Shown here: in pieces, positions 5,013 through 38,715 of the stretch
Layout of the letters: the number at the start of each line of letters is the position of its first letter
How positions within the stretch are numbered: position 1 is the first letter of the stretch
Source: Ginglymostoma cirratum
Taxonomy: Eukaryota
NCBI GenBank assembly: GCA_024137785.1
Contig: JAHRHZ010000111.1
Span: 31,689,547-31,753,546 of the forward strand
Length of the DNA: 64,000 bases
Direction: 5' to 3'
Position numbers and translations under genes: made by a program
Notes under the pieces: model-generated
Database searches by the model: none
Told to the model about the DNA's origin: nothing
Seen by the model: the letters and a program-made list of their open reading frames with translations, nothing else

Positions 5013-5064
5013 TTAGAGTTTTATGAGGATATTACTTGTACCAAAGGAACAATGGATATGGTGT

Positions 5065-5283
5065 AACAAGCATGGGGCTGGATGAACACAGCAGGTCAAG
5101 CAGCATCATAGGAGCAGGAAAACTTGACGTTTCAGGCCTAGACCCTTCATCAGAAATGATGAAGGGTCTAGGCCCGAAATGTCAAGTTTTCCTGCTCCTA
5201 TGATGCTGCTTGACCTGCTGTGTTCATCCAGCCCCATGCTTGTTATCTCAGATTCTCCAGCATCTGCAGTACCTTTTATCTCT
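5065..5283. mobile_element. Palindromic Penelope-like pseudo-LTR element (family A) with hammerhead motifs and 14-bp TSD
   Basis: Inverted arms 5065-5152 and 5157-5244 plus a ~39-nt tail; aatggatatggtgt duplicated at 5051-5064 and 5284-5297; arms match the 3' end of the GIY-YIG element at 21550-21637. Confidence 0.9.
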
Positions 5284-5433
5284 AATGGATATGGTGTGTC
5301 TGGATTTTCAAAAGAGTTATGATAAGGTCCCACCAAAATGGATTAGTAAACAAATTAAAGAGATTTGAATGGAGGGTGGATTGTTTAACAGCCAGAATGT
5401 GGACATTCGGAATAAAGGGATTATTTTCTGGAT

Positions 5434-5556
5434 GGGATAGTAAGAACTGCCGATGCTGGAGTCAGAGATAACACAGTGTGGAGCTGGAGGAACACAGCAG
5501 GCCAGGCAGCTTCAGACGTGCAGGAAAGCTGTTGTTTCAGGTCAGGGCCCTTCCTC
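5434..5556 (-). mobile_element. Diverged solo Penelope-like pLTR (family A-related) inserted in CR1
   Basis: gatgctggagtcagagataacacagtgtggagctggaggaacacagcaggcc..cccttcctcag. Confidence 0.8.
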
Positions 5557-5912
5557 AGGCTGGCAGGTTGTTACTAATGGGGTACTGAAAGGATGAATGC
5601 CAAGCCCAATGCATTCATTTAAATGATTTAAATGAGGTGGCCAATTGTAATATTTCCACATTTGCCGATGGCTCAAAATCAAGTGGGAATGAGATGGATG
5701 AAATGATGCTTCAAGGGGACATAGATAAGCAGAGTAAATGGGCTAAAACATGGCAGATGGAATGTAATGTGAAAAAGTGTGAAGTCATCTACTTTGGGAG
5801 AAAATAAAAACCCAGAAAAGCAGAATATTTCTTAAATGGTGAGAAGTTGGGAAGGGCTTGTGTCCAATGTGACCTGGATTTGCTTAGATGTTATTGAAAG
5901 CTAGCAGGCAAG

Positions 5913-7082
5913 TTTTTTTTTATTCATTTGTGGGATGTGGGCGTTGCTGGCTGGCTAGCATTACCTGCCCTTCCCTAGTTGCCCTTGAGAAGATGGTGAT
6001 GAGCTGCTTTCTTGAACTGCTACAGTCGTCCTGCCATGGGTTGGCCCACAATGCTATTAGAGAGGGAATTCCAGGGTTTTGGCCCAGCGACAGTGAAGGA
6101 ACAGTGATATATTTCCAAGTCAGGATGGTGAGTGACTTGGAGGGGAACATGGAGGTGGTGGTGTTCCCATATATCTGCTGTTCTTGTCCTTCTAGATGGA
6201 AATGTTTGTGGGTTTGGAAGGTGCTATCTGAGGATCTTTGGTGAATTTCTGCAGTGCATCTTGTAGATAGTACACACTGCTCCTACAGAGCGTCGGTGGT
6301 GGAGGGAGTGAATGCTTGTTGATGTAGTGCCAATCAAGTGGGCTGCTTGATCTTGGATGGTGTCAAGCTTCTTGAGTGTTGATGGGGCTGCACTCATCCA
6401 GTCAAGTGGGGAGTATTCCATCACAGTCCTGACTTGTGCCTTGTAGCTGGTGGACAGGCTTTGAGGAGTCAGGAAGTGAGTTACTCTCCGCAGTTTTCAC
6501 AGCTCCTGGCCTGGTCTTGTAGCCAATCTGTTTATGCGTTGAGTCCAGTTGAGTTTCTGGTAAATGGTAACCCCCAGAATGTTGATAGTGGGGGATTCAG
6601 TGATGGTAACACCTTTGAACGTCAGGGCGTGGTGGTTAGATTGTCTCTTATTGGTGATGGTCATAGCTTGGCATTTGTGTGGCATGAATGTCACTTGCCA
6701 CTTGTCAGCCCAAGCCTGGATATTGTTCAGATCTTGTTGCATGTGAACATGGACTGCCTCAGTATCTGAGGAGTCACGAATGGTGCTGAGCATTGTGCAA
6801 TCATTGGTGAACATACTCACTGCTGACCTTATGATGGCCGGAAGGTCATTGATGAAGCAACTGAAGCTAGTTGGGCCAAAGACACTACCCTTAGGAACTC
6901 CTGCAGACATGTCCTGGAGTTGAGATGATTGACCTCCTACGACCACGACCATCTTCCTATGTGTCAGGTTTGACTCCAACCACTGGAGCGTTTGCCCCAT
7001 GATACCCATTGATTTCAGTTTTGCCAGGTCTCCTTGATGCCACACTCGGTCGAATGCAGCCTTGATATCAAGGGCTGTCATG
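5913..7082 (-). mobile_element. 5'-truncated CR1/L2-group LINE with RT domain and intact 3' tail
   Basis: ORF 6497-7096: ALDIKAAFDRVWHQG..GVPKGSVFGP..FTNDCT (decayed YADD)..WADKWQVTF; polyA appears as the T-run at 5913. Confidence 0.9.
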
Positions 7083-7087
7083 AGTAC

Positions 7088-7685
7088 GGCAAGCAATTAC
7101 TGTGTTAGCCTTTTCTGCAAGGGGATTCAAGTCCAGAAGTAAAGATGTCTCGCTGCAATTGTATACAAACTTGGTAAGACATCATTTGGAATATTGGTCT
7201 TCTTATTCATAGAAGAATACACTTGCAGTAGAGAGAGTGTGATATAGACTGGCCAACCTAATCCTTGGCTTGGTGGAGCTGCCTTATAAGGAGAGAATGA
7301 GAAAACTGTACCTGCAATCTTTAAATTTTGAAGAATGAAAGATGATCCATTGAATTTTACAAAATTCTTCCAGGGTATGACAACATAAATGTAGAAATGA
7401 TATTTCTACTGGCTGGTGAGCGTAGGATTTGGGACATAATATTACAATAAGAGAGAGATAGGATATTTAAGACTGAAGTGAGGAGGAACTTCTTCACTTA
7501 GAGGGTGGTGAATCATTGGAATTCTCTACTCCAGAGGACTGTGGAAGCTCAATCATCTAATATGTTCAAGGCTGAGATCAATAGACTAAAGAAATCAAGG
7601 GATATGAAAGTAGTGTGGGAAAGGTGCATTGACGTATGGTCAAAAAAGCTTAGACTAGCCTATTTATGTTCTCATATTCCTATGC
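7088..7685 (+). mobile_element. CR1 LINE 3' part (continuation of 5030-5912)
   Basis: LQLYTNLVRHHLEY-like motif; RRNFFT-RVVNHWNSLLQRTVEAQS; tail ttctcatattcctatg. Confidence 0.8.
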
Positions 7686-8394
7686 TTGACAGGAAAAAAA
7701 AAGTCTACTTCCGCCCCTATTTCTAGTGAAATCTTCTAAGTCAGCCAGGCACGGTCTTCTGTCGTCGTGGGAAGCAATGAAATTCTGACTAAGAAATAAT
7801 TCTGACACCATTCCAGTCAGTCATCCATTCTACCATCAAAGGAGGTGTCCACAGGCTGGATTTTGTAGCATCATTATTAAGTGCAATGAAGATTTTCATA
7901 ATTGAACCGAAATTGTTGACAGAAATCCAAATATTGATATGAGAACAACTAGAATGGTCTAAGCAGCAAACTCATCTCTTGTAGCATATAAGATATCGAA
8001 GTACAAAGTCTAAAATTAAAGTACTATTTAAATTCAGGTACTATTTAAACTAGCTTTCAATTATTAGAATCCTGATGAAAATCCCACAGGGGACAATGAT
8101 ACAATGTTTGACAATGTGTAGTGCTACTGCACAATAGAATTTTGTATTTTCAGAATCTGAGGCTTAATGCTAATAGAAAGTGCTGCACAATTATTGCCTT
8201 AGGCATTTTAGTTTATTTTATATATTTCAGTCAGGGATGTCCTTATAATGTATATCGAGCTCTGGTCAGAGGCCATATAAAATGCGCATACAATCCCCAA
8301 TCTTAGCAGCTGAGTCTTTGTAATGGTTCTGCTTTTTAATTGCAATTTTCCATATTTCTGTGCAACTGATGGAGCTAAATTCCTTTTGTTGTGA

Positions 8395-8680
8395 GATCGT
8401 AAGAACTTAAGGTATGAGAATGTAAGCCTTATGACCTTTCGAGCCTGCTCTGCTGTGAGTAAGACTGTGGCTGATCTGATCCTGGCCACAACTCCACTCT
8501 CCAACATGCTTCCCGCGACCCCTTGGCTCACCTATAGTTTAAGAACCTATCTTAGCTTTGAACATGCTCCATGATTCAGCTTCCACCATTTTCTGGGGTA
8601 AAGAACTCATGAATCACTGAGAGAAGAAATTCCTCATAATCTCCATTTTAAACAGGTCACCTCTTATTCTGAAACTGCAG
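8395..8680 (-). mobile_element. CR1 LINE 3' end fragment
   Basis: Reverse complement of the CR1 tail (agagaagaaattcctcataatctccattttaaacagg..cttattctgaaactg). Confidence 0.7.
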
Positions 8681-9779
8681 TTGGTATCTTCCAAAAGTGA
8701 GGAAGATTGGAAGAGACAAATCCATGACTAGCGCCGATGTGAAAGCTCAGCAGGTTTCCTCGCAATCGGATACCTCATTGCCGGATTGTGGGCTTTTAAC
8801 TGGAATTAGGACTCAGAAGGAGGAAGTCCCAGCTGCCAAGAGCAACTGGCCATTCAGAGGCTGGCAGCTCCAGAACTGGGTAATGCCACAGAAGAGACTG
8901 TAACTCCTGCAGGTTCAACAACCCTAGACTTCCAGATTGGAACGGCAAACACAGAGAACCTAATTGCTGTTTAGGGGACAGGTTCACAGAGTGGTCATCA
9001 TAGGGAAAGAGTGCCATAAGGGTCAGAAACAAGAACAGAAGGTGGTATTTCAGGCCACACTCCTGCTTTTGAGCAATTCCTCAACCATGAACAGGTCATT
9101 GCAGATCGAGCGATCTCTCCCCTCAGCTGACACTCTGCCCGTACTGCTTACGAGGTCAAATAGGCCAACCCTTTCTCATCCAGCCTGGAGCTGAAATGAC
9201 TGTGACCTCCCAGGAATTGCCCCTTAAAAGGATATTAATAGATTACTTAATGACTTCAGTTGGAGGCAGGGAAAAAAGGTGGAATTTGAACTTTGCCACC
9301 CAAAACCCGACGCAGGTGGAGGTGGGATAATGGCAGGGTCCTGGTATGGAACAATCCCGTCTAGTTAAGTTCTCCTTCTCTCTTCTATCCTATGCCCCCT
9401 AGCTACAGACTAAAATCCTCTCAAAATCGACCCTGTCAAGCAGCCCCCCAAGTATAACCTGTTATTTTTCTAAATTTTAATGAATGTAGGTCAAAACTGC
9501 TTAAACATTTCTCATAAAACAATCTTTTCAGCTCAAGAATCAATAAATATTCTCCGAACTGCCCATAGTGCAAGTATATGCATGTGTGTTAGGAATCATG
9601 GTGAAACACATTGACAGATCTGAATGACTGAACTACATCTGTTACTCTTGTCTGTTCTCCAGGCGACAGCCATGAAGTGTTATTTTGAGAAGAACTAAGA
9701 GCAACTCATTGGACATACTGTCTCCTTGCAGATTGTGGAGAAGGCATGCCAGGAAAGTCCATGTGAATCTCATGAGATT

Positions 9780-9910
9780 TTAACAACCTGGCATTTTGTC
9801 ATCAGCAATATTTACAGCAAGACATATTAGACAAAATCTGTGTGCAGAAGCCACAAGCTTCCCCAAGGAGGTCATCACATAAGCCTATACATGCTTGCAG
9901 CCAGATACTT
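9780..9910 (+). pseudogene. Possible Harbinger/HARBI1-like transposase N-terminal relic
   Basis: Translates to SFPKEVIT*AYTCLQPD, resembling RFxKExxxELCxLLxPDL. Confidence 0.3.
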
Positions 9911-10029
9911 ATTTAGCTAGTTAGCAGGCATGAGAGCTATCAGGGCAGTCAAGAAGCCTTCAATGTTTGGAATTGATCTGAGTGATAGTGAGAGATGTCT
10001 GCTGAGTTACCAAATTTCATTGCATATTT

Positions 10030-10212
10030 GCTTTATTTGGTCTGATAAGTGGCAATTAACATTTGCACCACCTTGTACAAGGCTATAGCCATTTCCACAA
10101 AAGAGAATCTATCCACTTTTCCTTGACATTCATTGGTATCCCCATTGCTGAACTCCCCACCATCATTTTCTGGGAATACCATTGACCAGAAACTTACCTG
10201 GACCAACCATAT
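10030..10212 (+). mobile_element. Fragment of the LINE family at 5913-7082
   Basis: gataagtggcaattaacatttg..actcccccaccatc..accattgaccagaaacttacctggacc matches the reverse complement of ~6530-6715. Confidence 0.7.
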
Positions 10213-11454
10213 TTTGGAGATTCCTGTTTTTCGGACTGGAGGAACGATACAGTTACGTTCTCCAGGGGTTAATGTTAGAAACCCTGCCTTTGCTGATATG
10301 TTTTATCATCTGGACCTGGCCAGGGCACCGTTTGGAAATAATGTATGCTATAAAACAGCTCTGACAACTTTAGTCTATTTAAAAATTTTGCATTTCTTTC
10401 ACAAATTTATCAAAGGAGCCACTATAGTGCTGAAATCCAGAAGAAAGTTTCAATAAAGTCAGACTCTTGTCATCATATGTCAGAATTTCACGGTTTGTCT
10501 TCAGCACAGGGAAATCCAAGGTAGCCCTCATTTTTCCTCTTTAGGTGCCATTTGGCTTTGGTCCACAGTATGACCCAAATAAGTCTCTTCTGCTTTGTCA
10601 AATGCACTTTTATGTATACTTATGGCCAAATTGGCACTTAGTGATTGATCAAATTGTTCAATTAAGTAGTACAAATATTCTTCCTAGGTTTGGCTAAATC
10701 CAACCAAGTTGATGGTGTAGATTATGCAGTTACATAGTTCTTTAATTATTTTGGTCAATCATTGGAAAGTTGCTGATGCATTTTTCATTCCAAATTGCAT
10801 GACTTTACAATTATGAAATCCATCCAGTGTTAATAAAGTTTCTCTCAACCTGTTAGTCAATGTAACTTGTCTATATGCTTTTAACAAGTCAATTTTAGTC
10901 ATATTCATACAATTCTTTCAATACAGTATTCTACTTGTGGGATCAGATAGGAATCCTTCTTCATTTAATTCTAAATGCTGGGTGATTACTTTAAGCGTCT
11001 TATCCTTGAGAGGCTCGACTGGTATTTCTACTTTCAATTTATCTGCTAAGTCTCTCAGTTTAGTCCTCATCAAATTTTTTCAAATATTCCACTGTTATGT
11101 CTTCTATTCCTAGAAATGTCTTGGCAATACTCAAAGCCATTTTGAGATTTCAATCAGCTTAATAAACTTTACAACAATTCTCCTGTTTCATGTTCTCCAC
11201 ATGCTCTTTTTTGAAAAGACACAAAAGCTCCACTGAAGTTCAATTCATTTCAATCCCAAAACAACACCAATTTGATATAATTGCATCTGATATTAATACT
11301 ACGCATCAGATCCCAGATTGAAACTTGGTTTGATAGATAATCTGTTTAAGATTTTGACTGGTTACCATGGCAGCTGGACACTGAAACATATTCATTAGAG
11401 GCTGCACATGTTCATAAATTCAGTACACAAGAAAAGCTAAATATATATCTACAC

Positions 11455-12200
11455 GGGCTTCTAAATGGCAGATAAAATTTGCTGCAGAGAAGTGTTAAGC
11501 GATTAATTTTGACAGGGAAAATGATGATAACTAGTATAAACTAAAGGTTACAATTCTAAAGAGGATGCAGGGGGATATGGGACTATATGTGAATAAATCA
11601 CTGATGCTGGTAGAGCAGGTTGAGAATGCCTTAATAAATCAAATGGGACCCTGGGCTTTAAAAGTAGAAGCATTGAGTACAAGTGCAGAGAACTTAAGAT
11701 AGACCTGTATAAATCACTGGGTCAGCTGCAATTAGAACATTGTGTCATTAAAGAAAAAGAGGAGTAGACAGGATGCAGTAAAGATTCATGGAAATGGTTC
11801 CTGTGATAGGGAACTTCAGTAATCTGGATAGATTAGAGAAGCTGGTGCTGTTTATCTTGGAAGAGACAGATTAACAAGAGATTTTATGGAAGTGTTCAAA
11901 ATAATGAGAACATAGTAGACAGGGAAGAACTGCTTCCATTAGCACAGGGGTGAAAAGCAGAATGTACTCATTCGAGGAAACTAACAAAACAGTCAATAGC
12001 AACAGGAGGAAAAGATGTTTTTACAGAGTGAGTGGTTAGAATCCACAAAATATTGTTGAGAATGTGGTGAAGGTCACTTCAGTCGTGGCTTTCCAAGGAG
12101 AATTGGACAATTTCTAAAGAGAAAATATATGCATGGCTAACGGAAATGACAGGGTGTTGGGATGAGATGAGTTGCCCTGCAGTGATCTTCTCAAGTGCAA
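11455..12200 (+). mobile_element. Old CR1 LINE 3' region
   Basis: aaatggcagataaaattt..gagaagtgt; LYKSLGQLQLEHCV motif; gattagagaagctggtgctgtttatcttgga. Confidence 0.75.
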
Positions 12201-12402: not shown

Positions 12403-12424
12403 AGAGAGAGAGAGAGAGAGAGAG
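12403..12424. repeat. (AG)11 microsatellite at the end of an old pLTR-like remnant (12310-12424)
   Basis: Direct read. Confidence 0.9.
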
Positions 12425-12757: not shown

Positions 12758-13168
12758 AAGGAGCAGCACCTCATTCTGCCTCGGGAGACTACAACCCAAT
12801 GGTCTCAATGTGGACTTCACTAGTTTCAAAATCTACCCACCCCTGGCCTCGTCCCATGTCCAACCCTCCCTCTCATCCCAGCTCCCTTGACCTGTCTGTC
12901 TTCTCTCCCACCTATCTGCTCCTCCCACTTCACTGACCAATCCTGCATACCTGCCCTCACCTAGCACCAGCCCACCTACCTTCCCCAGCCCCACCTCTCC
13001 TCTCTCTATTTATTTCAGAGATCCCTTCGCCCTCCCCCATTTCTGAAGAAGGGTCCCGACCCAAAACATCAGCTTTCCTGCTCCTCTGATGCTGCCTGGC
13101 CTGCTGTGTTCCTCCAGCCCCACACTGTGTTGTCTCTGACTCCAGCATTGGCAGTTCTTACTATCTCT
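12758..13168 (+). mobile_element. Penelope-like element 3' fragment (GIY-YIG C-terminus, pyrimidine-rich UTR, pLTR with decayed hammerhead)
   Basis: EQHLI..GRLQPNGLNVDFTSFKI; ctgaagaagggtcccgacccaaaacatc at 13043-13070. Confidence 0.85.
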
Positions 13169-20318: not shown

Positions 20319-20650
20319 CCACAGCAACATGGAAGCAGCTCACTTTGGACCAGCAGTTAACATGGGTATGGTAGCAACTTCATAATGTTTCAGAACCATC
20401 CAAGGTGGAGGGGAGATGTGAAAATTTAAAAATTACAGCCAGACATATGCCCCATAAGTATGACAGAAGCTGAGGATTCCTTTAATTATTGTTCCAAATA
20501 ACTGCCTCCCAACTGGTATAGCAATGGGTATAAGCAGCATAAACAGGAATAGTCTATAATCAGGCAGGAAGAGCTAAATATGGTGTTGAATCTGAATTGA
20601 ATCATCATTGGCTGCCCCTTGCTTCAAGAATGATGATTATTCAGGGTTGC

Positions 20651-21280
20651 GAATTCCAACGCATCATCCTCCAACACTTCCACCATCTGCAATCCGACAC
20701 CACCACCAAAGACATTTTTCCCTCCCCATCCTTATCTGCTTTCCGGAGGGACGACTCCCTCCGCTACTCCCTTGTCCGCTCCACACTCCCCTCCAGCCCC
20801 ACCACACCCGGCACTTTTCCCTGCAACCGCAGGAAGTGCTACACCTGCCCCCACACCTCCTTCCTCACCCCAATCCCAGGCCCCAAGAAGTCTTTCCACA
20901 TCAGGCAGATGTTCACCTGCACATCTGCCAATGTGGTATACTGCATCCGCTGTACCCGTTGTGGCCTCCTCTACATCGGGGAAACCAAGCGGAGGCTTTT
21001 GGACCGCTTTGCAGAACACCTGCGCTCAGTTCGCAACAAACAACTGCACCTCCCAGTCGCGAACCATTTCAACTCCCCCTCCCATTCCTCAGACGACATG
21101 TCCATCCTGGGCCTCCTGCAATGCCACAATGATGCCACCCGAAGGCTGCAGGAACAGCGAATCATATTCAGCCTGGGAACCCTGCAGCCCAATGGTATCG
21201 ATGTGGATTTCACAAGCTTCAAAATCTCCCCTCCCCCAACCGCATCCCAAAACCAGCCCAGCTCGTCCCTGCCTCCCTAA
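20651..21280 (+). CDS. Penelope-like element C-terminal region: Cys linker plus GIY-YIG endonuclease (5'-truncated, frame open)
   Basis: ORF 20597-21280: FPCNRRKCYTC..NVVYCIRCTRCGLLYIGETKRRLLDRFAEH..VANHFN..RRLQEQRIIFSLGTLQPNG. Confidence 0.85.
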   Translation, partial: EFQRIILQHFHHLQSDTTTKDIFPSPSLSAFRRDDSLRYSLVRSTLPSSPTTPGTFPCNRRKCYTCPHTSFLTPIPGPKKSFHIRQMFTCTSANVVYCIRCTRCGLLYIGETKRRLLDRFAEHLRSVRNKQLHLPVANHFNSPSHSSDDMSILGLLQCHNDATRRLQEQRIIFSLGTLQPNGIDVDFTSFKISPPPTASQNQPSSSLPP

Positions 21281-21548
21281 CCTGTTTTTCCTCTCACCTA
21301 TCCCCTCCTCCCACCTCAAGCCCCACCCCTATCTCCTATCTACTAACATCATCCCACCCCCTTGACCTGTCCGTCCTCCCTGGACTGACCTATCTCCTCC
21401 CTACCCCCCTACCTACACTCACCTTTACTGGCTCCATCCCCGCCTCTTTGACTTGTCTGTCTCCTCTCCACCTATCCTCTCCTCTATCCATCTTCTATCC
21501 GCCTCCCCCTCTCTCCCTATTTATTTCAGAACCCTCTTCCCCTCCCCC

Positions 21549-21584
21549 ATTTCTGATGAAGGGTCTAGGCCCGAAACGTCAAGC
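21549..21584 (+). ncRNA. Minimal type I hammerhead ribozyme motif
   Basis: CUGAUGA-A-GGGU(CUAG)GCCC-GAAA-CG-UC; helix III reduced to palindromic ACGU; predicted cleavage after 21580. Confidence 0.75.
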
Positions 21585-22240
21585 TTTCCTATGATGTTGC
21601 TTGGCCTGCTGTGTTCATCCAGCTCCACACGTTATCGCTGTACATGATCAACAGGTTGATTCCCAATGCAGGCAGGACACTGTCCCAAGTGGCAGTGGTG
21701 TTGGATTGCTGCATTTGCTTCGTTTTCTTCCTTTCTCTGCTGCAGGGCCTGCTCCATCATTAAGGATCTTCAACTAGAGTCAATCACTTAACCTCTATTT
21801 GTGTCAATGTTTGATGTTGCTGTCCATTTGCTGCCAGAACTTGGCAAACAGCAGGTCCTCACAAAGCTTAGAAAACAGTCTTGATACAACAAAAAAAAGC
21901 AGCAACATGCTACCATTTCCATGACACATTTACTTTGTCACAGGCATATATTTAGCACAGTGCAAAAAGGTCACAACTTAATGTTTTCACTGACAAAACA
22001 AAGGATGTTCCAAACAGCACATTAGCTAACATTGCATTTCAAATGCAGGCACCACTTAGATGCCAGACAGGAAGTAGCTCCATTACAATACACTTCAAGG
22101 ACACCCACAAATATTCTAATTGGATTGCTTATAGTTCAGCACCTTAGTTGCATTCCTACAGATCATTAGCATGAAAGTGTGCCCTTGGTGTCTTAATATC
22201 ACACAGATCAACCAACTTCTCAGTTATTCATAGTGAAAAC

Positions 22241-22535: not shown

Positions 22536-23296
22536 AAACACAATTATTGGACAAAGTGAGAAGAGACAGGGTATTTGTGGATCAGAGTCTCTTTATCAGT
22601 GGTTGTGAAGATCACAACATCTCTTAATTTTTCATAGCCAGACAATTTTAATCCATCTGGAAGGAGGTACCTTGTGAAGCAAGACAACCATGTCCACAAG
22701 AATTCAGCACACAACCAAAGGGGAGGTATTCCAGGGACATCACAGAACCATTCATTTTACAGAGGTGCAGAGCAACAGTAATAGAGAAAATAGCAATTTA
22801 TGCCATGAAATATAAATAATTTCATAGCTGTTTTTAAACCAAGGTTTTGGTTAGTATGGAATAACAGGGTCAAGTTTCACTTGTTAAACCTGATGTGAAG
22901 AGAATGGTAATAGTCTCAAATAGATCAATAGATCAATAGCATTACTGTCTGTTATGAGAGTGCAAACAACACGATTTTGAAAGGACCTAAACACCAGTTT
23001 ATCGCTGTAGGCTTCTTTAAGCATATGGACCACTACTCTATCACCTCCCCCCCAACCAACCATCCCCACAAACAAATGTTCATTACGACATGATTCTTCA
23101 GCTCAATCCGACATTTGAATCACAATTGTCTTTGATGCTTTGCATCTTGTGGCTTGATGTAATTAAGATCTGAACCTAAAGATCATCAACTCCATCTTTT
23201 CCACAGGTGTGCCCAAAAGTCAAAATGGACTCCCGATACACCCGTCAAATCATTATGAAGAACACGCATATGTTCAAAATACTAAGTGTAGTGTTA

Positions 23297-23500
23297 TAAC
23301 AAGGTGTAGAGCTGGATGAACACGGCAGGAAATCTTGACGTTTCGGGCCTAGACCCCTCATCAGAATTTTCTGATGAAGGGTCTAGGCCCAAAACGTCAA
23401 CATTTCCTGATCCTATGATGCTGCTTGGCCTGCTGTGTTCATCCAGCTCTACACCTTGTTATCTTGGATTCTCCAGCATCTGCAGTACCTTTTATCTCTG
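23297..23500. mobile_element. Palindromic pLTR element (family A)
   Basis: Arms meet at catcagaa-t-tttctgatg; intact hammerhead core on - (23337-23364), G12>A on +; tgtagtgttat at 23287-23297 and 23508-23518. Confidence 0.88.
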
Positions 23501-23561
23501 ATACAATTGTAGTGTTATGATCCCTGACATGGTCTGCCAAACTCATGTTCAGTCTGGCTAG

Positions 23562-25378
23562 TGAAATAATTTCACAGAGGCTGGTATGCCATCACCAAGT
23601 CACCCTTTATTTACATGTGGAGAGTCCTTGACACTGATCCAGCTCCCTCGGAGGCAGCTCTCAGAATGAACAGGATGTCTGACACTCTGCTTCTTATCTG
23701 TCAGCCAGGGCTCCCTGATTGGACCAGATTAACAACCCCGATCAGGGAACTCCTATTCAATGAGACCCATCTGGCTGACATAATTACAGTCACTACATTT
23801 CGCCCCCTCTCACCCTGAGGACATAAGCCAGCTCTTCATTTTGTAGCTTTTCCTGAGGCTTTTTAGCATGCAGGTCAGGTTCCTCCAACTCTGCCTCTGA
23901 TACAGATGCTGTGTAACTCACAGTAACTCGCCTCTTGCACCCAGAGCATCTCGGAAAAATTCATTCTCCTCTTCAGGTGGCAAAATTGTCGAAGCTGCAA
24001 CATTCACCATGTACATCACGGATTCTAAGGTTTCTTCAACCGTTAATGGTAAGGGAGGACATGCGGGTCCCAGAACAGTCGGAGAAGCATTCAAGGAGCC
24101 GGGCACATTTTGCTCCTGCACCGTTTGCAAGTTTGCAGCTTTCATTTGGTCTATGTGCTTGTTCAGGGCCGCTGGACCTACCCAAGCCTTTTACATTACT
24201 GGGCTTGACCTCATGTTGACCTTTCCTCTTACCATGCAGGGCCATTCCCATGGCTTTGTGAAGGACAGCCCTCCTATCAACTATGTGTATAAATCCTTTA
24301 TGCAAGGAATTGCGTATTTATCCAGCTGCAAAACGTGGTTTACTGTTTGTTTAAAATCCCCACAAAGGTGAACCGACCCATCAGTCCTCACAATCAGTAC
24401 AATCGGTGCTGCCCATTCTGCAAACTGCACTGGTTTGATGATTCCTTCACATTCCAACCTCCTGATTTCTGTCTCTACTTTTATGCATAAGGCAAATGGT
24501 AATAGGTGGGTCTTGCAGAATCGTGGAATTGCTTCTTGGTCAACATGCAAGGTGGCCTTGTCTCCTTTGACAGTCCCTAGACCTTCCTGAAAAACGTTTG
24601 GGGTGAGAATTAGAGCTTAACTCAGGTAGCCATTTTCTGATCAAAAAATAATGAGCCAACCTAGGTGAATCTTCTCAACGAATTTCGTCCCAACAAGCTT
24701 GGGTCCAAGTCTTTTACTACAATCAGTGGTAACTGAATGAGCTGCTTCTCATAAGAGATTGGAACCAAAGTTGGACACTGAATCTGTAAAGGTTTCCCGA
24801 TATAGGTTTCACATGAGATTACATGTACAGACTTGAGGCCAGGGTGAATTTTGTTAAAGACTGGTTCTGTGATCACTGAAACAGCTGTGCTGGTATCAAA
24901 CTCCATTAGAAACAGGTGGCCATTTAACCAGACATTTATTTTGATCGAAGGTGTAGAGCTGGATGAACACAGCAGGCCAAGCAGCATCAGAGGAGCAGGA
25001 AGGCTGACGTTTCGGGCCTAGGCCCTTCTGAAGAAGGTTTTCGTAAATGTTGCCTCAGCGAATGTTAGGCTCCTAATAACGGAAAAAGCTGTGGGTCCAC
25101 AAGCTGTCAGGAAAATTACTCAGAGATAAAAGGTACTGCAGATGCTGGAGAATCCGAGATAACAAGCATGGGGCTGGATGAACACAGCAGGTAAAGCAGC
25201 ATCATAGGAGCAGGAAAACTTGACGTTTCGGGAGCCAGCTCTCACAGTGAACAGAACGTCTGAAACTTTTGCTTATATCTGTCAGCCAGGGGTCCCTGAT
25301 TGGATCAGATTAACAGCCCCAATCAGGGAGCTCATATTCCATGAGGTCCACCTGGTTAAACTCATTACAATCACTACA
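23562..25378 (-). mobile_element. Internally deleted Ty3/Gypsy LTR retrotransposon with 5-bp TSD
   Basis: 3' LTR 23562-23797 (TG..CA), PPT 23798-23815, partial 5' LTR 25232-25378; protease relic MEFDTSTAVSVI; RT start GIIKPVQFAEWAAPIV..LCGDFKQTVN; GCTAG at 23557-23561 and 25379-25383. Confidence 0.9.
24948..25231 (-). mobile_element. Two same-orientation family A pLTR fragments (24948-25030, 25122-25231) inside the Gypsy element
   Basis: Both match gctggatgaacacagcagg..gcagcatca..gagcagga..gacgtttcggg. Confidence 0.85.
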
Positions 25379-26345: not shown

Positions 26346-26694
26346 GAAATGGTTGGGTGCAACAGACCATCATGGACTGGAAACTAGTCATTGGTTGTAA
26401 TGCCAGCATTTGGTTGATATTGTGAGGGGTGAGCTACAGTCTCCCTTGGTTTTGTCGGTGTTCACTTTTTCCCACTGCAAATAAAAGCTCATGTTTGGAA
26501 TTATCCAATTGCTTGTCTCTATGTCATGTTTCCACTGCTGGACAATGACAAGCTGCAGGTCTCCAGTAGCCATTGGGAGTAGAGGAGCAGTGACTTCGAG
26601 AGTTGTACAGACAGAATGTAGCTATATTCAGGTAAAGTGCATTTCCTATTGGCTAAGCAGAGTATCTGCAAAGGACTGACAGCTATGCTGACTA

Positions 26695-26857
26695 AGATAA
26701 CAAGGTGCAGAGCTGGATGAACACAGCAGGCCAAGCAGCATCAGAGGAGCAGGAAAGCTGACGTTTCAGGCCTAGACCCTTCTTCAGCTTGGCCTGCTGT
26801 GTTCATCCAGCTCTACGCCTTGTTATCTCAGATTCTCCAGCATCTGCAGTTCCTGCT
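26695..26857. mobile_element. Palindromic pLTR element (family A); right arm lacks the hammerhead
   Basis: Left arm ends at cttcttcag, right arm starts at cttggcctgctg; agctatgctg(a/g)cta at 26681-26694 and 26858-26871. Confidence 0.88.
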
Positions 26858-27389
26858 AGCTATGCTGGCTACGTGCCTTTGGGACTGCTGTGCCATGATG
26901 TTGCTGGTCAGGGGCAATGCTAATGATCGTCCAGGTGCACAGCAGCCTCTCAAAATGGCTTGGATGCAATGGATGTGACCAATTCTGAATATCTGGTGAG
27001 TAATTCCAGGGATGCTGCTTGATAAGACCATGGGATGGGAGGGTAGACAGTTAATAAGGTGCATCAGCTAAAGTACGATGAGAAATCTTGCTTGGCCTTG
27101 AGGTGAAAATCCCTCCTAAAGAACCTCAATGCAGTTCACACATTGCCAACAAAATGTATTATTCTGCCTAGATATTTATCTGGCAAGTCATTACGAGCAA
27201 TGCCAGAGGAGATATGTTCAATGGTTTAGACACATACACATATATATACATATACATCAAAATTTCACTTCAAATTTTTACCAATGTGAATTTAGTTTAA
27301 AAATATAAAAATAGTCATTCACTGTACCTTTCGACTTTGGGAATGAATCATTAAAACAATAACTCAGTTGTTATCGAGAGAGAACCTAC

Positions 27390-31945: not shown

Positions 31946-32183
31946 TCAGAGTCTTGTACATGTTACGAAATCATCACAAAGATAGGGGGTTTTGATATCG
32001 AGTCAGCTCCAAGTTTCCTAAAAATACCATTAAAAAAAAAGAAATAAAAATGTACCAGCTGGGAAATTTCATCAAAAGTTATTACGAAACCTTTTAATGT
32101 TAGCAAAATCTGTCTCATTAGCTCTTTATTATGATTGAAAAAAGTAAGCTTCACGAAGGCACCAGTGAACAGGGTTTTGGGCA

Positions 32184-32851
32184 GAGATAATAGGAACTGC
32201 AGATGCTGGAAAATCCGAGATAACAAGGTGTGGAGCTGGATGAACACAGCAGGCCAAGCAGCATCATAGGAGCAGGAAAGCTTGATGTTTCGGGCCTAGA
32301 CCCTTCATCAGAAATGATGAAGGGTCTAGGCCCGNNNNNNNNNNNNNNNNNNNNNNNNNNNNNNNNNNNNNNNNNNNNNNNNNNNNNNNNNNNNNNNNNN
32401 NNNNNNNNNNNNNNNNNNNNNNNNNNNNNNNNNNNNNNNNNNNNNNNNNNNNNNNNNNNNNNNNNNNNNNNNNNNNNNNNNNNNNNNNNNNNNNNNNNNN
32501 NNNNNNNNNNNNNNNNNNNNNNNNNNNNNNNNNNNNNNNNNNNNNNNNNNNNNNNNNNNNNNNNNNNNNNNNNNNNNNNNNNNNNNNNNNNNNNNNNNNN
32601 NNNNNNNNNNNNNNNNNNNNNNNNNNNNNNNNNNNNNNNNNNNNNNNNNNNNNNNNNNNNNNNNNNNNNNNNNNNNNNNNNNNNNNNNNNNNNNNNNNNN
32701 NNNNNNNNNNNNNNNNNNNNNNNNNNNNNNNNNNCGGGCCTAGACCCTTCATCATTTCTGATGAAGGGTCTAGGCCCGAAACATCAAGCTTTCCTGCTCC
32801 TATGATGCTGCTTGGCCTGCTGTGTTCATCCAGCTCCACACCTTGTTATCT
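32184..32851. mobile_element. Palindromic pLTR element (family A) spanning an assembly gap
   Basis: 32218-32334 is the exact reverse complement of 32735-32851; 34-nt tail 32184-32217; agggttttgggca at 32171-32183 and 32852-32864. Confidence 0.88.
32335..32734. other. Assembly gap (400 N)
   Basis: Direct read. Confidence 1.
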
Positions 32852-34859
32852 AGGGTTTTGGGCATGTGTGCCTACATTTTATTCGTTTTGGTTGGTGAAA
32901 GGTGTGGAATTCTAATATAACTTAACAACAGTCTAGCCTACAGGCTTCAGACTGAAACTTATGCCTGTAGGGTAACAATAGCAGGACAGAGCTTACAAAT
33001 GTATGTTAATGCAATTGACATATTGGCTCAAAATTTTCTCTTAGCTGTAAAGCATAAGCAATAACTTATCCCTCATACATTTTCATATTTACATAGAACA
33101 TAATTTTACTCAATTAGACTACTTTCATGAACACAATAATCATCAAAATGCATGCGTCTGGACAAAGGGTAAAGATCAGATATGATGGCCCAGTCATTAA
33201 ATGTCCTATCAACCCCTACTTCATTCACACAATAAGGGTTGCCACTTCAGATGATTTTAATGGCAGGCTTTGTTACCATACAGTTGGAATACAACACCCT
33301 CAGTTCAGGAGAGGTAGGGAAGGGAAAACAAGGCATATTTGGGTATGAAAAAAGTGAAAATTCATCCCAAACTCAACATCTCATTATAATTCCTTATGTG
33401 GTCATACTCAATTGGCGCAATAGAGAGGAGGTACAGACCTTTTGACATTTAACTGTCAAATTTTCAGATTTGCTGTTAACAATTACTCCCAGAACAGAAA
33501 TGTTTTCGATACAATTGAAACGGAAGAAAGTCGAAACAATCAACTGACCCTCAGTATCTGAAGCAAAGGAAAAAGAATTTAGGCTGTTCATCAGAAGTTA
33601 AGAATACTTCCAAATCTTATTTACAAGATTTTAAGCTATCTTCTTTCTATAAAGGTTACGGTGAGCATAAATTAAAACAAGAACACCCTTGCACAAAATC
33701 TCAGTGGTGTACCTTTCATGGTGTAAAATGATTCTGACACAATTCTCTGAGGCAACAGAAAAGAAGTGAGATAGCATGTTAAAAAGCCAACACCACAATT
33801 AACTGTGCACTTTTTTTTCCCCTTCACTAAATGTCAAGCTAGCAGCAAGGGTTATTTTCAAACTGTGAACATTTCTTCCCCTCCCCTACAGTGTACAATA
33901 AAGAGCTTCACTTTTCTGATCCCTGTTTCCTCAGGTGAAGTATCGACTGGAAAACCTGGAAAGCTGAGTTTTCTGAGGCAGTGCTTGAAAGAAGTCAGAA
34001 ATACAAATGTAAGCTGCTGATTACCTGAGTGATCAAGGAATGGGAGGTGCCTCGAGTTTGGAACAGACAGGGCAGGGAGATGTAAAGAAAATATAAAAAA
34101 AAGGATTATCACTCACCATCATACACTAATGACAAATCTTGGTGCTACTAATAGATTTCTATAGGAAGACAGGAAGAAAATTAATCAGATTACCACTTTA
34201 TACTGCTCTCTTACGGTTCCTCAAACTCAGTTTCACAGCTCCACTTGTGTAGTGGCAGCAGGTTGCATGCTCTACTATCTTGGCTAGAAAAGTAGCCTTG
34301 AAGTCTCCATAGAATTCTTTATACCTTCACTCTGCTGCTGGGTCAAAGTTCTTGGCTCCCTCCCAATAACACTATGGGTGGCCATACATTCCAGGGACTG
34401 CATCAGTTGACAGAGGTAGCTCACTAATTAGAGGGTATTAGAGATAGCCATAAAGCCTATATCAAGGACCCAGCTGTACCTTCAGCCTCTAAATCTGTTG
34501 GTGGAGGAGGGAATGCCCAGAAAGCTTACAACTGATTGTTCTCCGTGCTGTGAATTCTCTAAAAGGCTTCATGCGTTGCCAACAATGGTACCTGCCCGTT
34601 GTCCATTGGAATCCAATTGTTAAAATTCACCACATTTGGGTTGTTGCAGCAGAAAGCAAAAAATGATCATTGTTGCCTAGTTTGAACATATGTGCCTCTT
34701 GGTGCATTCACAGGCTGTCATCCTTTCCCGTGGAAAATAGTACAGGTTTTAGACTTGTCGGATACTCTGTGGTATATGTCTCTGTTCCATTCTCCCACCC
34801 TATCTGATCCTTACTGTTGTCAATGGAGTAAGATTCTGCCAGATACTGTGCGAGGCAAA

Positions 34860-35420
34860 AGCAAAACTTTTGTAGATGTGGCTTTTGAAGTAGTGGACCA
34901 GAGAATGTCAATGGATGTTATTTATATGGGATTTCAGAAGGCATTTACAAAATTCCTTCATAAATTAGCTGAAATTGAAGCGCATGGAATCGAAAACAAA
35001 TTATTTGACAGTTAGACAGTTGCCTCAATGGTAAGGGGCAGAGAGTGGGATAATGGGCAGTATTCTATTTTGCAGGATGTGACTAGTTCTGTGAAGGAGT
35101 CTCAACTATTTTCTTATTAATTACTTATTGAGATCATGTAATAAAAAGCCACATACACAAATCTGCTGATGACACAAAAATATTGACAGCATGGTAATCA
35201 CTCCAGATGCAAGCATAAAATGACAAAAGAAAGACTGAATAGATTAAGTGAATGGGATGCTGTGGCAAGCTGACTTCAAAATAGCAAGTGCAAGGTCATC
35301 CATTTTGAACCTGATAGAACCAGAGTAATTTCTAAATGGTGAAAAGCTAGAAACTGTGGAGGTCCAATTACATTGGTTATTAAAGGATCACAAAGTGGCA
35401 CAGAAAATATTCAAAAATGT
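34860..35420 (+). mobile_element. Degraded CR1 RT fragment
   Basis: MDVIYMGFQKAFTKFLHKL..IEAHGIE; SADDTKI. Confidence 0.8.
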
Positions 35421-37066
35421 GGAAGGGGTATCCTCCATTGTGGCAAAGATCTGGTCCTTGATCTCTGGTTACAGTGTTATCAGAAGGGGCTCATTGACAA
35501 GTGCTAACAAAAAAGGCTTATATTGAGGGAGGAGTATCTGGAAGCTAGGGGAAGTTGGTACGAAAAGAGATAAATAGACTAAACAAAGGGTATAATAAAA
35601 TGAAGAGTTCAGAATGCAAATAGAGATATTTATTTTGTACAGCAGTTATCAAAGTACAACAGCTCACTGAAGGTGTTGCTGTTTTAATGACTGTCACTGA
35701 AAATTTGAGAATAGCTCTTGCACAACTACAGACTAATGGAGGCAGTTTTATAAGAATATCTACTCAGAGAGTAATTGAACATTATGAGTGTTCAGGCAAT
35801 ACATGTCAGCAGCAGTCCAGGCTCCTGCTAAGCAAATATTTTCAACCAGCTGCTGCCAGCTGATACAATACCAGCTCATCAGGAACTGGTACAAAACAAG
35901 ATTTCCATATATAGGTATGCTCCATTAGTTCAGAAGGGAAGCCCTGAGTGGGGCATGCGTTTGTCAGATATTCTTGGCACAACTCATCACCGTATTCTGA
36001 GCTGCAAGTTTAAGCAAACACACATTTCTAGCTATTACTACAGATAGGCATTGTTTGATCATTGTGTTTACAGAGTGGACATGAACTGGGGTTACTAATT
36101 ATAATGAAACATTTATGAATAGATATTTCCATATATGAATGCTGATAAATTTAAACAGTTATTGATGGCCAGCGAGGCTGTACTGGCATGATATCACACA
36201 CTGCCACACATTACAGCTCACATATCAATAATATTAAGCTTCAGCACTGCATCAATGATAGTAGATTCAATAAAAAGGAAGATTGTGCAAACTGAGTGAT
36301 GCAAACACACCCATTCAGACCATTCACATGTAGGATCAATGAAAGCCTGTGGCTCTACAATACCAACCGCTGAGATAAGGTTTAATTATTCTCCCTTAGA
36401 TATGCAGAAACTAATGAAGGCTTTAAAACTAAATTCCCCCAGACCCAGAGTTATACAGACACCGACACTCATTCAGCAAAGTTCAACAGACAGAACAGAT
36501 GGCTTATATACTTTCACTCTCACCTGTTGCCATTTGCTCATTGGTTCTTGCCATTTATGTCCTTCGGACTTGAAGGAAGGTCACATCAACCACATTCCTG
36601 TAAAACCTGTAATATCATCACCAGCGAGACACTGAGCAGAAAGTTTCCAACAACCACGCACCACAAATCAACATCAATCAGGAAGCATGAACATTCAAAA
36701 TTTTAAAAAGTTATTAACTTTAATTGCAATGCCAGTAGCTCACCAACACAAACCAGGGAAGCAGGATTTGACACAGATCTATTTAAGTGTTATGTTTTCA
36801 TTTAAGCTTTCCCTCTAGAACTGATATTTGAAATTTAATTTAAAGTATACTGGAGGAAGAATTGTTCTTATCCCTCTGAGCAAAGTCAGCAGAGTGACTC
36901 TTCCTCTGTTTATCAAATCTATTTTCTGAATAACCTGGACAAAGCGACATTTATCATCTTAATTCAAATGGCTATGCAGAGGCAGAGCTGTGCCTTCTCC
37001 TTATACCCTGGAAGTGCCCACAATAATGCCCCTTTGGCAATGGTGCTGGCTAGGAATAGCTGAGAG

Positions 37067-37420
37067 GCTAGTGGTATTATCACTGGACTGTTAATCCAGA
37101 GAGCCAGACAATGTTCTGGGGACCCAGGTTCGAATCCCACCATGGCAGATGGTGGAATTGGAATTCAATAAAATATCTGGAATTAAGAATCTAATGATGA
37201 CCGTGAATCTGTTGTTGATTGTTGGGAAAAACCCATCTGGTTCTCTAATGTCCTTTAGGGAAGGAAACTGCCATCCTTACCTGGTCAGGCCTACGTGTGA
37301 CTCCAGACCCACAGCAAATGTGGTTGACTCTTAGCTGCCCTCTGGGCAATTAGGAATGGGCAATAAATGCTGCCTAACCAGTGACATCCTCATCCTGTTA
37401 ATGAATAAAGGAAAAAAAAA
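37067..37420 (+). mobile_element. tRNA-derived SINE with LINE-derived 3' tail
   Basis: A-box-like tagtggtatt, B box ggttcgaatccc (~37127-37138), tail gggcaataaatgctg..gaataaaggaaaaaaaaa. Confidence 0.9.
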
Positions 37421-37984
37421 TCCTGATCCAGCAGTGATGGAAGAACACTGATTGATTTCTAAGGCACGACATTGTGCAACTGAGAGGTGACAGTGTCCCT
37501 GCAGCGTTGATACTTTTGACTTTTTTTTGTGGTAGAGGTCACTTCACTGGCAGGTGCTTTCGAAGTAAATTTGGCAGGTTGCTGCAATGAATCCTATAAC
37601 AAATGCTGCAGGCACAGGGCATCGATAATTGAATGGATGATAATCAGAATAAACTGCTCTGTCCTCAATTACATTTTTTTTTTGCCATTGCACCCAGCCA
37701 GGCGTTTATTCCATCACTTCTTGATTTGTAATCTATCAAGCTAAGTTGAAGTGTAATGGAAACAATTATTTTGAACCTATACATCCCGGGATTGATAAGG
37801 GATCCTTGTAAAATTAAATCTCCACTTTAACTTATGTGTTTCAGTTGATTAGTCATGTATTAACTGGTCTTAATGATCCTGTAGTCATTCCCAATGCAGT
37901 AATACAGTTGCATATTACATAAGTTTTTTTCTTGAGACAATATAATCTGTAAGTAATAATTTTTAATGCAGTATGTTGAACTAA

Positions 37985-38194
37985 GGTCAGAATTCACAAG
38001 ACACCAGGTTATAGTCCAACAGGTTTATTTGAAATCACAAGCTTTCGTAGCACTGCCCCTTTGTCTGGTCTTCACTTGACCAGGGGGCATCGTTCAGAAA
38101 GCTTGTGATTTCAAAAAAACCTATTGGACTGTAATCTGGTGTCATGTGACTTCTGACCTTGTCCACTCCAATCCAACATTGGCAACTCCACATC
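37985..38194. mobile_element. Palindromic pLTR-like element, family C, with decayed hammerhead motifs and 14-bp TSD
   Basis: Arms ~37983-38069 and ~38074-38160 plus a 34-nt tail; gaaagcttgtga on both strands; atgttgaactaagg at 37973-37986 and 38195-38208. Confidence 0.8.
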
Positions 38195-38715
38195 ATGTTG
38201 AACTAAGGCTACAAAGGTTCCCTTTGTACAGGTTGCCGCCAGGGTTACAATCTGTGTCGGACACAAATAAATGTGCACTGGATCATCAACTAACCCAATT
38301 ACTCTAGACATTATATTCATTTCAGAAAACTTGATTAAGGACTGCTGGCATGGAAACAGTATCCTCTTGCTAAAACCAAAATTGTCCAGACATGACAGAC
38401 TGCAGTTTGACCCCTGCAAGCTATTGTATTATATAACAGATAGGAAATATAAGTTTGAATCTTCCCCAAGCTTTAATTACAAGAAAAAATTGAACAGCGG
38501 AAATCTTAAGTGAGCAGGAAATGAACTTTGGGTCAACTAGCATCTGAAAATGGCCCTTTGTTTTACATTCTGAATAGCTTGCAAAATTTTCTGATTTTAT
38601 TGAAATATGCAATGTAACTGCACATAGCAGTCAATTAAATTAGCAGCAAGTGATCATTTTTGGTTAAAAGTAACTGAGAAAAGTAACTTCTGCTGTTTGT
38701 GAGTTTTATTTTGCC

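Follow-up and report, generated by a model that had tools for sequence, protein, structure and literature searches.

Palindromic pLTR insertions in Ginglymostoma cirratum as probable minimal products of a Penelope-like element

The short palindromes found in a 64-kb window of Ginglymostoma cirratum (the window being the whole stretch of DNA analysed) most likely represent minimal products left repeatedly by the insertion of an ordinary shark Penelope-like element (PLE), and not a new self-copying ribozyme element. In the preferred reading, which is given a probability of roughly 0.7, an autonomous shark PLE of the Neptune/Nematis type gave rise to every palindrome separately, through a priming mechanism with two start sites; each would be a minimal insertion, dead on arrival, of the customary PLE layout (inverted copy, sense copy, tail and TSD) with both copies cut to the pLTR. 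All counts come from this single window, which holds five palindromes (E1 to E5). As a class of element the finding is ordinary, and the inverted pLTR, the tail and the TSD are already published PLE features. The regular shape of the palindromes hints at how PLEs integrate, and the cDNA stop hotspot and the rule of one arm per start site were not found in the published PLE literature.

Architecture and family membership

The five inverted elements of the preliminary description were recovered at, or a few bases off, the positions proposed for them (Table 1). Each consists of one tailed and one tailless arm joined head-to-head, a layout in which, on each strand, the ribozyme sits downstream of its own complement. 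The one-sided tail that had been reported is present in 5/5, always on a single arm and about 26-39 nt long, that of E3 being shorter than the others (26-29 nt). The flanking direct repeats, described as 13-14 bp in four cases and 11 bp in one, correspond to TSDs of 11-14 bp in E1 to E5, and a TSD score of at least 11 was reached by 5/5 palindromes versus 2/394 random position pairs in the same search. Those solos that have a TSD carry 6-11 bp.

Table 1. Features of the window, with positions counted from its first letter.
Feature	Position	Strand	Remarks
E1 left TSD, 14 bp	5051..5064	+	exact match to 5284-5297
E1 palindrome, family A	5065..5283	+	
E1 right TSD	5284..5297	+	14/14 match
Solo tailed copy, older	5441..5558	-	start exactly at C3
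Tailed family-A copy, older, longer	12773..13168	+	5'-truncated
PLE, family A, 5'-truncated	20640..21636	+	GIY-YIG remnant and Zn-finger linker 20642-21280; no tail
E2 palindrome	23284..23518	+	TSDs 11-14 bp
Tailless family-A copy ending at +5/+6	24947..25038	-	ambiguous
Solo tailed copy, E1 subfamily	25122..25232	-	start +18
E3 palindrome, different subfamily	26681..26871	+	14-bp TSD, 1 mismatch (26681-26694 / 26858-26871)
E4 palindrome, tail at left	32171..32864	-	13/13 TSD (32171-32183 / 32852-32864)
E5 palindrome, separate older family	37973..38208	+	14/14 TSD (37973-37986 / 38195-38208)
Solo tailed copy, E1 subfamily	43061..43265	-	start -77
Family-B solo	46060..46176	-	start -4; 9-bp TSD, 1 mismatch
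Family-B PLE, 5'-truncated, GIY-YIG decayed	46736..47660	-	about 66% identity to family-A long copy over 519 bp
Solo tailless family-A arm	47961..48059	-	ends at core (+2 to -3); own 11-bp TSD
Solo tailed copy, independent	48114..48277	+	from near -27; 7-bp TSD; subfamily unlike its neighbour's
Family-B-like solo, decayed	53255..53400	+	start near core (about -7, from alignment)
Probable sixth inverted element, older, asymmetric, family B	53436..53838	-	overlooked in the preliminary description

In E1, the tailless inverted arm runs from +89 to -3/-5 and holds an intact core on the minus strand (5130-5153), and the tailed arm runs from +2/+4 to +128 without C3; the junction shows a microhomology of 2 nt and a loop of 4 nt. 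The element inserted into an old LINE RT remnant, and a single RT-like frame runs on across both flanks with the TSD codons duplicated. As a proxy for empty sites, flanks were mapped to further copies of the repeats within the window, with no usable pair found. The long hairpin that had been proposed is borne out by the predicted fold of E1 (about 87 bp, -182.6 kcal/mol, z=-24.9). The variants said to be common to both E1 arms are indeed present in both (3 differences in 87 columns), but they also occur in the plain solos 43061 and 25122 and therefore mark the subfamily, not the identity of the palindrome.

Regarding E2, the TSD is exact over 11 bp (23287-23297 / 23508-23518) or extends to 14 bp with one mismatch, both arms reach -2/-3 with a near-perfect centre, about 23 nt are deleted inside the inverted arm, and the core of the tailed arm has changed from GAAA to AAAA. 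The inverted arm of E3 spans +93 to +1, and its tailed arm starts from +54, without hammerhead or core. The extent formerly given for E4 (32184-32851) does not hold, as it includes 400 N (32335-32734) with one collapsed sequence on both sides: the start of the right contig matches the end of the left one base for base in reverse complement (117/117 bases), and the junction is present twice in opposite orientations. E4 is thus an assembly collapse with a real length of probably about 224 bp, which makes its junction orientation and arm identity unreliable. E5 had been included in a single design with the others; none of the other copies in the window matches it, and it forms a separate family, with an arm identity of about 76-81%, both cores decayed and the junction at most about 3 nt from the core position. 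The probable sixth element, at 53 kb, has a tailed arm from near +4 and a tailless arm that extends at least about 50 nt further upstream; its candidate 14-bp TSD was read by eye (11/14 match; null 8/3000). Most of its spacer gave no significant homology, and 53580-53715, compared with other PLE 3' UTRs, did not score above shuffles.

The pLTR of E1 to E4 is continuous with a GIY-YIG remnant at 20642-21280 (PF01541, E 1.4e-5), whose relatives carry an RT upstream; this ORF link covers E1 to E4, an ORF-bearing relative of E5 being absent from the window. The ORF at 20543-21280 contains C-x4-C-x2-C, which fits the CX2-5CxxC linker upstream of GIY-YIG. The Neptune/Nematis-type label is based on the linker, the GIY-YIG domain and the pLTR features, in a window with neither a PLE RT or intact RT ORF nor a full-length PLE. 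Concerning other coding matter, 0/39 scanned ORFs matched a host family above the cut-off. A chance 46-aa translation across the junction gave, outside the window, no candidates near its length and nine longer ones with no hits, and only three weak, unrelated matches among 1.84 billion representatives. A motif scan for stray copies in prokaryotic genome contigs gave 0 matches.

Relationship with ordinary copies and position of the ends

The preliminary description had left two options: stereotyped truncation or inversion products of PLEs, or a retrozyme-like family, non-autonomous and with one ribozyme per strand. The first is supported, since ordinary truncated PLE copies of the Neptune/Nematis type are scattered among the palindrome arms. 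The second is not supported: the AU test rejects a single palindrome clade (p=3e-5), no element is doubly intact, and no ends lie at the cleavage site. The AU test also rejects the grouping of E1 with E4 (p=0.0013). On the tree (129 columns, 1/12 branches starred) the palindrome label changes 5 times, as against 5.3 on average after shuffling, and the palindromes group together in 0% of the bootstrap trees. Moreover, the E1 arms differ from solo 43061 at 2-3/87 positions and from those arms that retain a core in the other palindromes at 7-12/87, and 0/10 palindrome pairs share both subfamily and junction. Random junctions together with interleaved arms had been named as the mark of ordinary inversion products; the arms are interleaved, but the junctions are clustered.

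This clustering is also seen outside the palindromes. The inner end falls at -5 to +6 nt of the hammerhead C3 in 7/12 family-A insertions, 3/8 non-palindromic ones included. Among the 10 insertions ending between +60 and -100, this hotspot has P=7e-7 (scan-corrected 2e-5) under a uniform null, which is crude, and the hotspot calls at 24948 and 53263 are uncertain by several bases. The solos alone give 3/8, or 3/6 within +60 to -100 (P=0.007), and the same position recurs in 3/4 family-B insertions and in E5. Since the clustering is common to solos, it is a property of the PLE insertion reaction and not of a palindrome family. The outer ends form two classes, both of which also occur in solos, and each palindrome has one arm per class (5/5, P=0.03 at p=0.5; 6/6, P=0.016, with the 53-kb element). 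The junctions of E1 and E2, the latter assuming one central substitution, are among the 28/376 possible junctions with a microhomology of at least 2 nt. The copy at 24947 either carries a 12-nt micro-inverted arm, as in twin priming, or has a 6-bp TSD with 4 extra bases.

By a pattern scan of the sequence, the pLTR is predicted to hold a type I hammerhead of the minimal kind, with core, stem II and a minimal stem III, which is intact in the 3' pLTR of the long family-A copy (21553-21576); an Rfam search did not detect a hammerhead. The claim of a ribozyme motif on each strand was not sustained, as two intact cores are found in 0/4 assessable palindromes (E1, E2, E3, E5). Near the cleavage site (+27/+28) lie the inner ends of 0 of 15 aligned family-A arms, and ribozyme cleavage was dismissed as the cause of the stop because the ends lie about 25 nt upstream of that site. 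A splice acceptor as the cause was not supported, with one family-A end only (about -27) near a candidate AG and none at the hotspot. A stable snap-back hairpin of the cDNA proved thermodynamically unremarkable (z about 0). The hammerheads are proposed to be passengers in the insertion reaction.

Proposed insertion mechanism and rival explanations

The GIY-YIG endonuclease, probably as a dimer by analogy with Poseidon_Ac (PAc) from Anolis, would cut both strands with a stagger of 13-14 nt, as the observed TSDs suggest. Both 3'-OH ends would prime RT on pLTR RNA of one subfamily, as extrapolated from PAc in vitro. A distal start (+128) would yield the tailed arm and a proximal one (+89 to +93) the tailless arm; the end positions are observed and the start sites are assigned by analogy. 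Synthesis of cDNA would tend to stop where the observed ends lie, at the hammerhead core's 5' edge (-5 to +6). The likeliest cause, at somewhat under even odds, may be that the template RNA starts there, so that 5'-proximal start sites would give short run-off cDNA; alternatively, a protein or a fold could impose the stop. The two cDNA ends would be joined through the observed microhomologies of 1-4 nt, or else the tailless cDNA could snap back and be completed with the tail-primed strand. If only one cDNA were kept, a solo arm would result, with a TSD shorter or absent.

Some points weigh against this model, among them the single window, the small tree, the crude null for the end positions, the unremarkable snap-back hairpin and a window with no intact RT ORF or full-length element. 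E1 and E4 have the same junction, as inheritance would also give, yet E4 is collapsed and belongs to another subfamily. The 14/14 TSD of E5, with arms diverged by about 20%, could reflect a re-mobilised diverged palindrome (chance about 5-17%, hand estimate). Furthermore, the PAc RT gave products in vitro that depended on template length, and the available sections of that paper report no hammerhead stop (PMC11167929).

The junction could instead be inherited, the mini-elements copying the 5' end of a full-length master with an inverted pLTR by internal initiation at 5'-proximal start sites. Full-length PLEs with an inverted pLTR and 5' palindromes of 18-38 bp have been described (PMC3846280), RT initiation can take place inside the template, close to the ORF's 5' end (PMC11167929), and the junction common to E1 and E4 would be accounted for. 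We consider this unlikely, given at least four distinct junctions among the five elements, solos (5441, 47961, 46060) that end at this position too but show no sign of an inverted arm, and the need to reproduce exactly the outer end of that arm.

It is improbable that palindromic RNA from several masters in different subfamilies is retrotransposed in trans by PLE proteins as a self-propagating non-autonomous family. The stereotyped size and junction, the junction common to E1 and E4 and the perfect TSD of E5 despite its diverged arms would fit such a family; rotifer pLTRs suffice in trans (PMC3846280), vertebrate pLTR-derived retrozymes include one from a chondrichthyan (bioRxiv 10.64898/2026.07.22.740005), and the AU test rules out one origin, not several masters. 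Against it stand the lack of pairs alike in subfamily and junction, the hotspot in solos, the lack of doubly intact cores in the four assessable elements, the missing cleavage-site ends, and outer ends of the inverted arms that resemble RT start-type ends and not variable 5' truncations. The duplex of about 87 bp is also predicted from its energy to bury the bulk of the start region together with the ribozyme. Stem II pairing probabilities (at most 0.001 in palindromes; 0.005 and 0.038 in two solo controls) do not separate palindromes from solos, so the argument of a buried ribozyme is left to the duplex energy.

Comparably improbable is an origin with no second target-primed RT event, by self-priming on an antisense transcript (Arkhipova 2013) or by post-insertion fold-back repair of DNA. 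The self-priming model is published, and its attribution of head-to-head palindromes to an antisense template counts against the two-start-site reading (PMC3846280). Partial information on L1 describes inverted duplications formed through 2-bp microhomology hairpins (bioRxiv 10.1101/2024.12.14.628481), and the tailless arm extends further 5' in the asymmetric E1, E3 and 53-kb elements, as snap-back predicts. Nevertheless, the centre of E2 allows a loop of only 0-2 nt, a tail is not obtainable by copying the tailless strand, and the full-length TSDs of palindromes versus the shorter ones of solos are left unexplained. An assembly artefact or chance adjacency of two solos is hardly credible: E4 is mis-assembled, and the 47972/48115 pair, rejected as a sixth palindrome for its separate TSDs and different subfamilies, is a chance head-to-head neighbourhood, but E1, E2, E3 and E5 each have arms that differ from one another, one TSD around the pair and no N.

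Comparison with known systems and meaning

Known miRNA precursor families were rejected, since 6/6 Rfam hits were generic hairpin matches far under the gathering score. MITEs and other DNA-transposon derivatives have terminal inverted repeats that are symmetric, with a short TSD of fixed length. The palindromes are not of that kind, having asymmetric ends (tail), TSDs of 11-14 bp and arms made of a retroelement pLTR. As in L1 twin priming, the second target strand would prime RT and the inverted piece be joined by microhomology with the TSD kept; in the L1 case, as far as the accounts available describe it, the inverted piece comes from another region of the RNA, further upstream, whereas in the shark elements one pLTR segment is copied into both arms, from two fixed starts.

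The inverted copy, one-end tail and TSD that typify EN+ PLE insertions are present in 5/5 palindromes. Such insertions have an inverted 5' copy, a 30-40 bp tail on one side, a TSD around the whole unit and palindromic junctions, together with a minimal hammerhead in the pLTR and a cognate GIY-YIG with the CX2-5CxxC linker (PMC8557442, PMC3846280). Unlike them, the palindromes are ORF-less, both arms are cut to the pLTR and the junctions cluster at the hammerhead core; their TSDs are 13-14 bp versus 8-10 bp in the rotifer PLE examples available. The likeness to PAc in vitro concerns two RT start sites, which bound the tail, cutting and extension of both strands, a predicted dimer, and hammerhead cleavage that is not required; in its available sections that study does not deal with inverted products, with how junctions are joined or with a stop hotspot (PMC11167929). 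PAc belongs to a different clade, Penelope/Poseidon without the Zn-finger linker. In Schistosoma, PLE hammerheads also lie in close pairs on opposite strands, and most of the motifs are related to truncated PLEs; in the part of that work available the pairs are 100-700 bp apart and not dissected, whereas the shark cores abut and one is usually clipped (PMC4209133). Non-LTR retrozymes are likewise short, ORF-less, hammerhead-bearing and pLTR-related, with larger TSDs (PMC7229834; bioRxiv 10.64898/2026.07.22.740005). However, they are arranged as head-to-tail tandems, from which ribozymes on the same strand release monomers and circles. Membership was rejected because the palindromes are head-to-head single units, their boundaries are not set by cleavage (a criterion derived from the retrozyme model), and a sequence family of their own is rejected by the AU test in this one window.

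How PLEs assemble inverted, tailed insertions is called unresolved in PMC8557442 and PMC11167929. Minimal insertions turn this question into a countable one, with three predictions: an arm for each RT start site, full TSDs of 13-14 bp in two-armed copies only, and cDNA ends concentrated at the hammerhead. Palindromes also disrupt short-read assemblies, as at E4. Near-perfect hairpins of about 90 bp could supply siRNA silencing; inverted Penelope copies feed such silencing in Drosophila, according to the portion of PMC3681739 available. Finally, a doubtful but possible idea is that the template is a discrete non-coding RNA of about 130 nt, or the PLE transcript's 5' end, reaching from core to tail, which a dimeric PLE protein would copy from both starts into one staggered cut. 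If true, this would be the Penelope counterpart of strong-stop DNA. If the short RNA were also made from solo pLTRs, sharks would harbour a pLTR mini-element of SINE-like character that is mobilised in trans and inserts either as a solo or as a palindrome; dsRNA directed at the parent element could then be seeded by the palindromes throughout the genome.

Five palindromes and their surroundings

The five head-to-head pLTR palindromes (E1-E5) of the preliminary description were all found (5/5) in the window, whose DNA is repeat-rich throughout. They are real and of a known kind, being extreme truncations of inverted insertions of Penelope-like elements (PLE). The flanking direct repeats were also confirmed as target-site duplications (TSD), with scores of at least 11 in all five versus 2/394 random pairs, and the tail lies on one side only, each palindrome having one tailed and one tailless arm.

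Other claims had to be revised. The E4 span is not a single intact unit, with 400 N inside. Its contig ends are reverse complements over 117/117 bases and the junction appears twice, so the identity of the E4 arms is not independent evidence; the true unit is probably ~224 bp. The ribozyme motif proposed for each strand fails in the 4/4 assessable elements (E1, E2, E3 and E5), and E5 is a separate family.

No intact PLE is present within the 64-kb window. The GIY-YIG remnant shares 91% identity with a Rhincodon typus protein and 81% with a Stegostoma protein, and it carries a C-x4-C-x2-C linker, the type that marks Neptune/Nematis PLEs in the available sections of PMC8557442. A BLAST census with references taken from the window gave 12 insertions of pLTR family A (E1-E4 and eight non-palindromic copies); four of family B and E5 bring the total to 17. 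The visible TSDs of solo (single-arm) copies measure 11, 9, 7 and 6 bp. The head-to-head pair at 47972/48115 was ruled out as a palindrome, as it consists of two separate insertions with their own TSDs. A plus-strand A starts all six 13-14 bp TSDs (5051, 23284, 26681, 32171, 37973, 53436) whatever the element orientation, in a small sample.

Palindromes and associated features of the window
Positions	Feature	TSD (bp)	Observations
5065-5283	E1	14	Tailed arm without C3
23284-23518	E2	11-14	Tailed arm has lost G12
26681-26871	E3	14	Tailed arm without core
32171-32864	E4	13
37973-38208	E5	14	Both hammerhead cores decayed; TSD perfect despite arms ~20% diverged, differences concentrated near core
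4900-5720	Old LINE RT remnant, presumably CR1-like		Shared by E1 and older solo 5441-5558, ~160 bp apart
20642-21280	GIY-YIG remnant		PF01541 match
23298-23345	E2 inverted arm		Microhomology deletion: ~23 nt lost, with a short direct repeat on either side
24947-25038	Family-A arm in Gypsy-like protease remnant (PF13975, score below cut-off)		Inner end: possible 12-nt inverted arm, priming site overlapping 6-bp TSD; miniature twin-priming-like
47961-48277	Two family-A solos of different subfamilies		Head-to-head, ~65 bp apart; chance or local re-targeting
53436-53838	Family-B insertion	Candidate, 11/14 matching	Probably an older, asymmetric inverted element
21500-21552, 46836-46860, 53715-53730	Pyrimidine tract plus AG		3' splice acceptor-like
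46830-46846 (minus strand)	Small natural hairpin in long family-B copy		Overlaps 5' edge of hammerhead core
23562-23797, 25233-25378, 56692-56922	Dispersed ~235-bp repeat, possibly LTR of Gypsy-like element		Adjoins solo 25122; another copy just right of E2
56943-57550	Unrelated long inverted-repeat pair (117 bp, 87%)		Probably DNA-transposon remnant
44432-45849	Unrelated long inverted-repeat pair (227 bp, 74%)		Probably DNA-transposon remnant

Ends of the arms

Positions are counted from C3 of the CUGANGA core (+1), with predicted cleavage after +27/+28. The random junctions considered in the preliminary description were not observed, since the inner ends, on the core side, cluster at -5..+6. 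This holds for 7/12 family-A insertions (P=7e-7 among the 10 ending between +60 and -100; 2e-5 after scan correction, uniform null). Non-palindromic family-A copies alone gave 3/8, and 3/6 in the +60..-100 range (P=0.007). The remaining family-A inner ends are at +54, +18, -27, -77 and, in two cases, far upstream; none of the 12 insertions has one at the cleavage site. In family B, 3/4 insertions end near the core (-4, about -7 and +4), and E5, read by eye, joins at most ~3 nt from its core.

The acceptor-like AG lies upstream of the core, by 27 nt in family A and 2-13 nt in family B; in Drosophila Penelope, an intron is described as ending at hammerhead helix I (part of PMC4209133). The small family-B hairpin recalls the palindromes that rotifer PLEs are described as having in their 5' pLTRs.

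Concerning the outer ends, palindromes and solos have two classes in common, tailless at ~+77..+93 and tailed at +115..+128, and every palindrome has one of each (5/5, P=0.03). Junction microhomology amounts to 2 nt for E1 and, with one substitution tolerated, also for E2; by eye, E3 shows 1 nt and a possible micro-inversion at 24948 shows 4 nt. Just 28/376 possible junctions near the core offer at least 2 nt, so identical junctions in two different subfamilies are unsurprising.

A probable origin in PLE integration

According to sections of PMC8557442, PLEs typically have a 5' copy in inverted orientation and a tail of 30-40 bp, and cause difficulties in assembly; their general structure is likewise treated in PMC8969392. 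PMC3846280 describes palindromes at head-to-head junctions, together with TSDs, and puts forward a model of self-priming. Hammerhead pairs on opposite strands 100-700 bp apart appear in PMC4209133, and siRNA from inverted Penelope copies in PMC3681739. According to the available text of Frangieh et al. (PMC11167929), a PLE protein, a predicted dimer, cuts and extends both target strands in vitro, reverse transcription begins at two internal sites whose spacing equals the tail, and hammerhead cleavage is dispensable.

The shark palindromes are best read as the shortest two-ended product of this cut-and-extend reaction. Each start site would yield one cDNA, both cDNAs would stop near the core, and they would be joined via microhomology, or the tailless strand would snap back. 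The tailless arm extends further 5' in the asymmetric cases (E1, E3 and the 53-kb element), which fits either route; the loopless centre of E2 fits joining better than snap-back. As for the stop, the leading explanation is that transcripts may have their 5' end at the core, favoured because products of PAc (Poseidon_Ac of Anolis) became shorter as the template 5' end was truncated (PMC11167929, in part). A stop imposed by protein or structure is the alternative.

Kinship of palindromes and solo copies

The palindromes of this window do not group as a family. The E1 arms differ from each other at 3/87 sites and from solo 43061 at 2-3/87, versus 7-12/87 from core-containing arms of other palindromes. 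On a 15-row tree of family A (129 columns, 1/12 branches starred), in which E4 has a single row and neither E5 nor family B is included, the palindrome label needs 5 changes versus a shuffled mean of 5.3. The AU test, run after inspection of an initial tree, rejected a single palindrome clade (p=3e-5) and an E1+E4 clade (p=0.0013); it leaves a small probability of several independent masters.

Hence, PLE truncation or inversion products stand as the better of the two readings first proposed, and a self-propagating, retrozyme-like family is unlikely. Retrozymes are described as head-to-tail tandems (parts of PMC7229834; bioRxiv 10.64898/2026.07.22.740005). Furthermore, a transcript through a palindrome meets its complement first, and the predicted hairpin (-182.6 kcal/mol in E1) argues against ribozyme function; stem II pairing probability did not separate palindromes from solos.

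In the literature searched, which covered few subscription papers, no description of ORF-less two-pLTR shark palindromes was found, nor any report that 5' ends cluster at the hammerhead or that each start site supplies one arm. The lasting value of these regularities, seen in one window, is for understanding how PLEs integrate.
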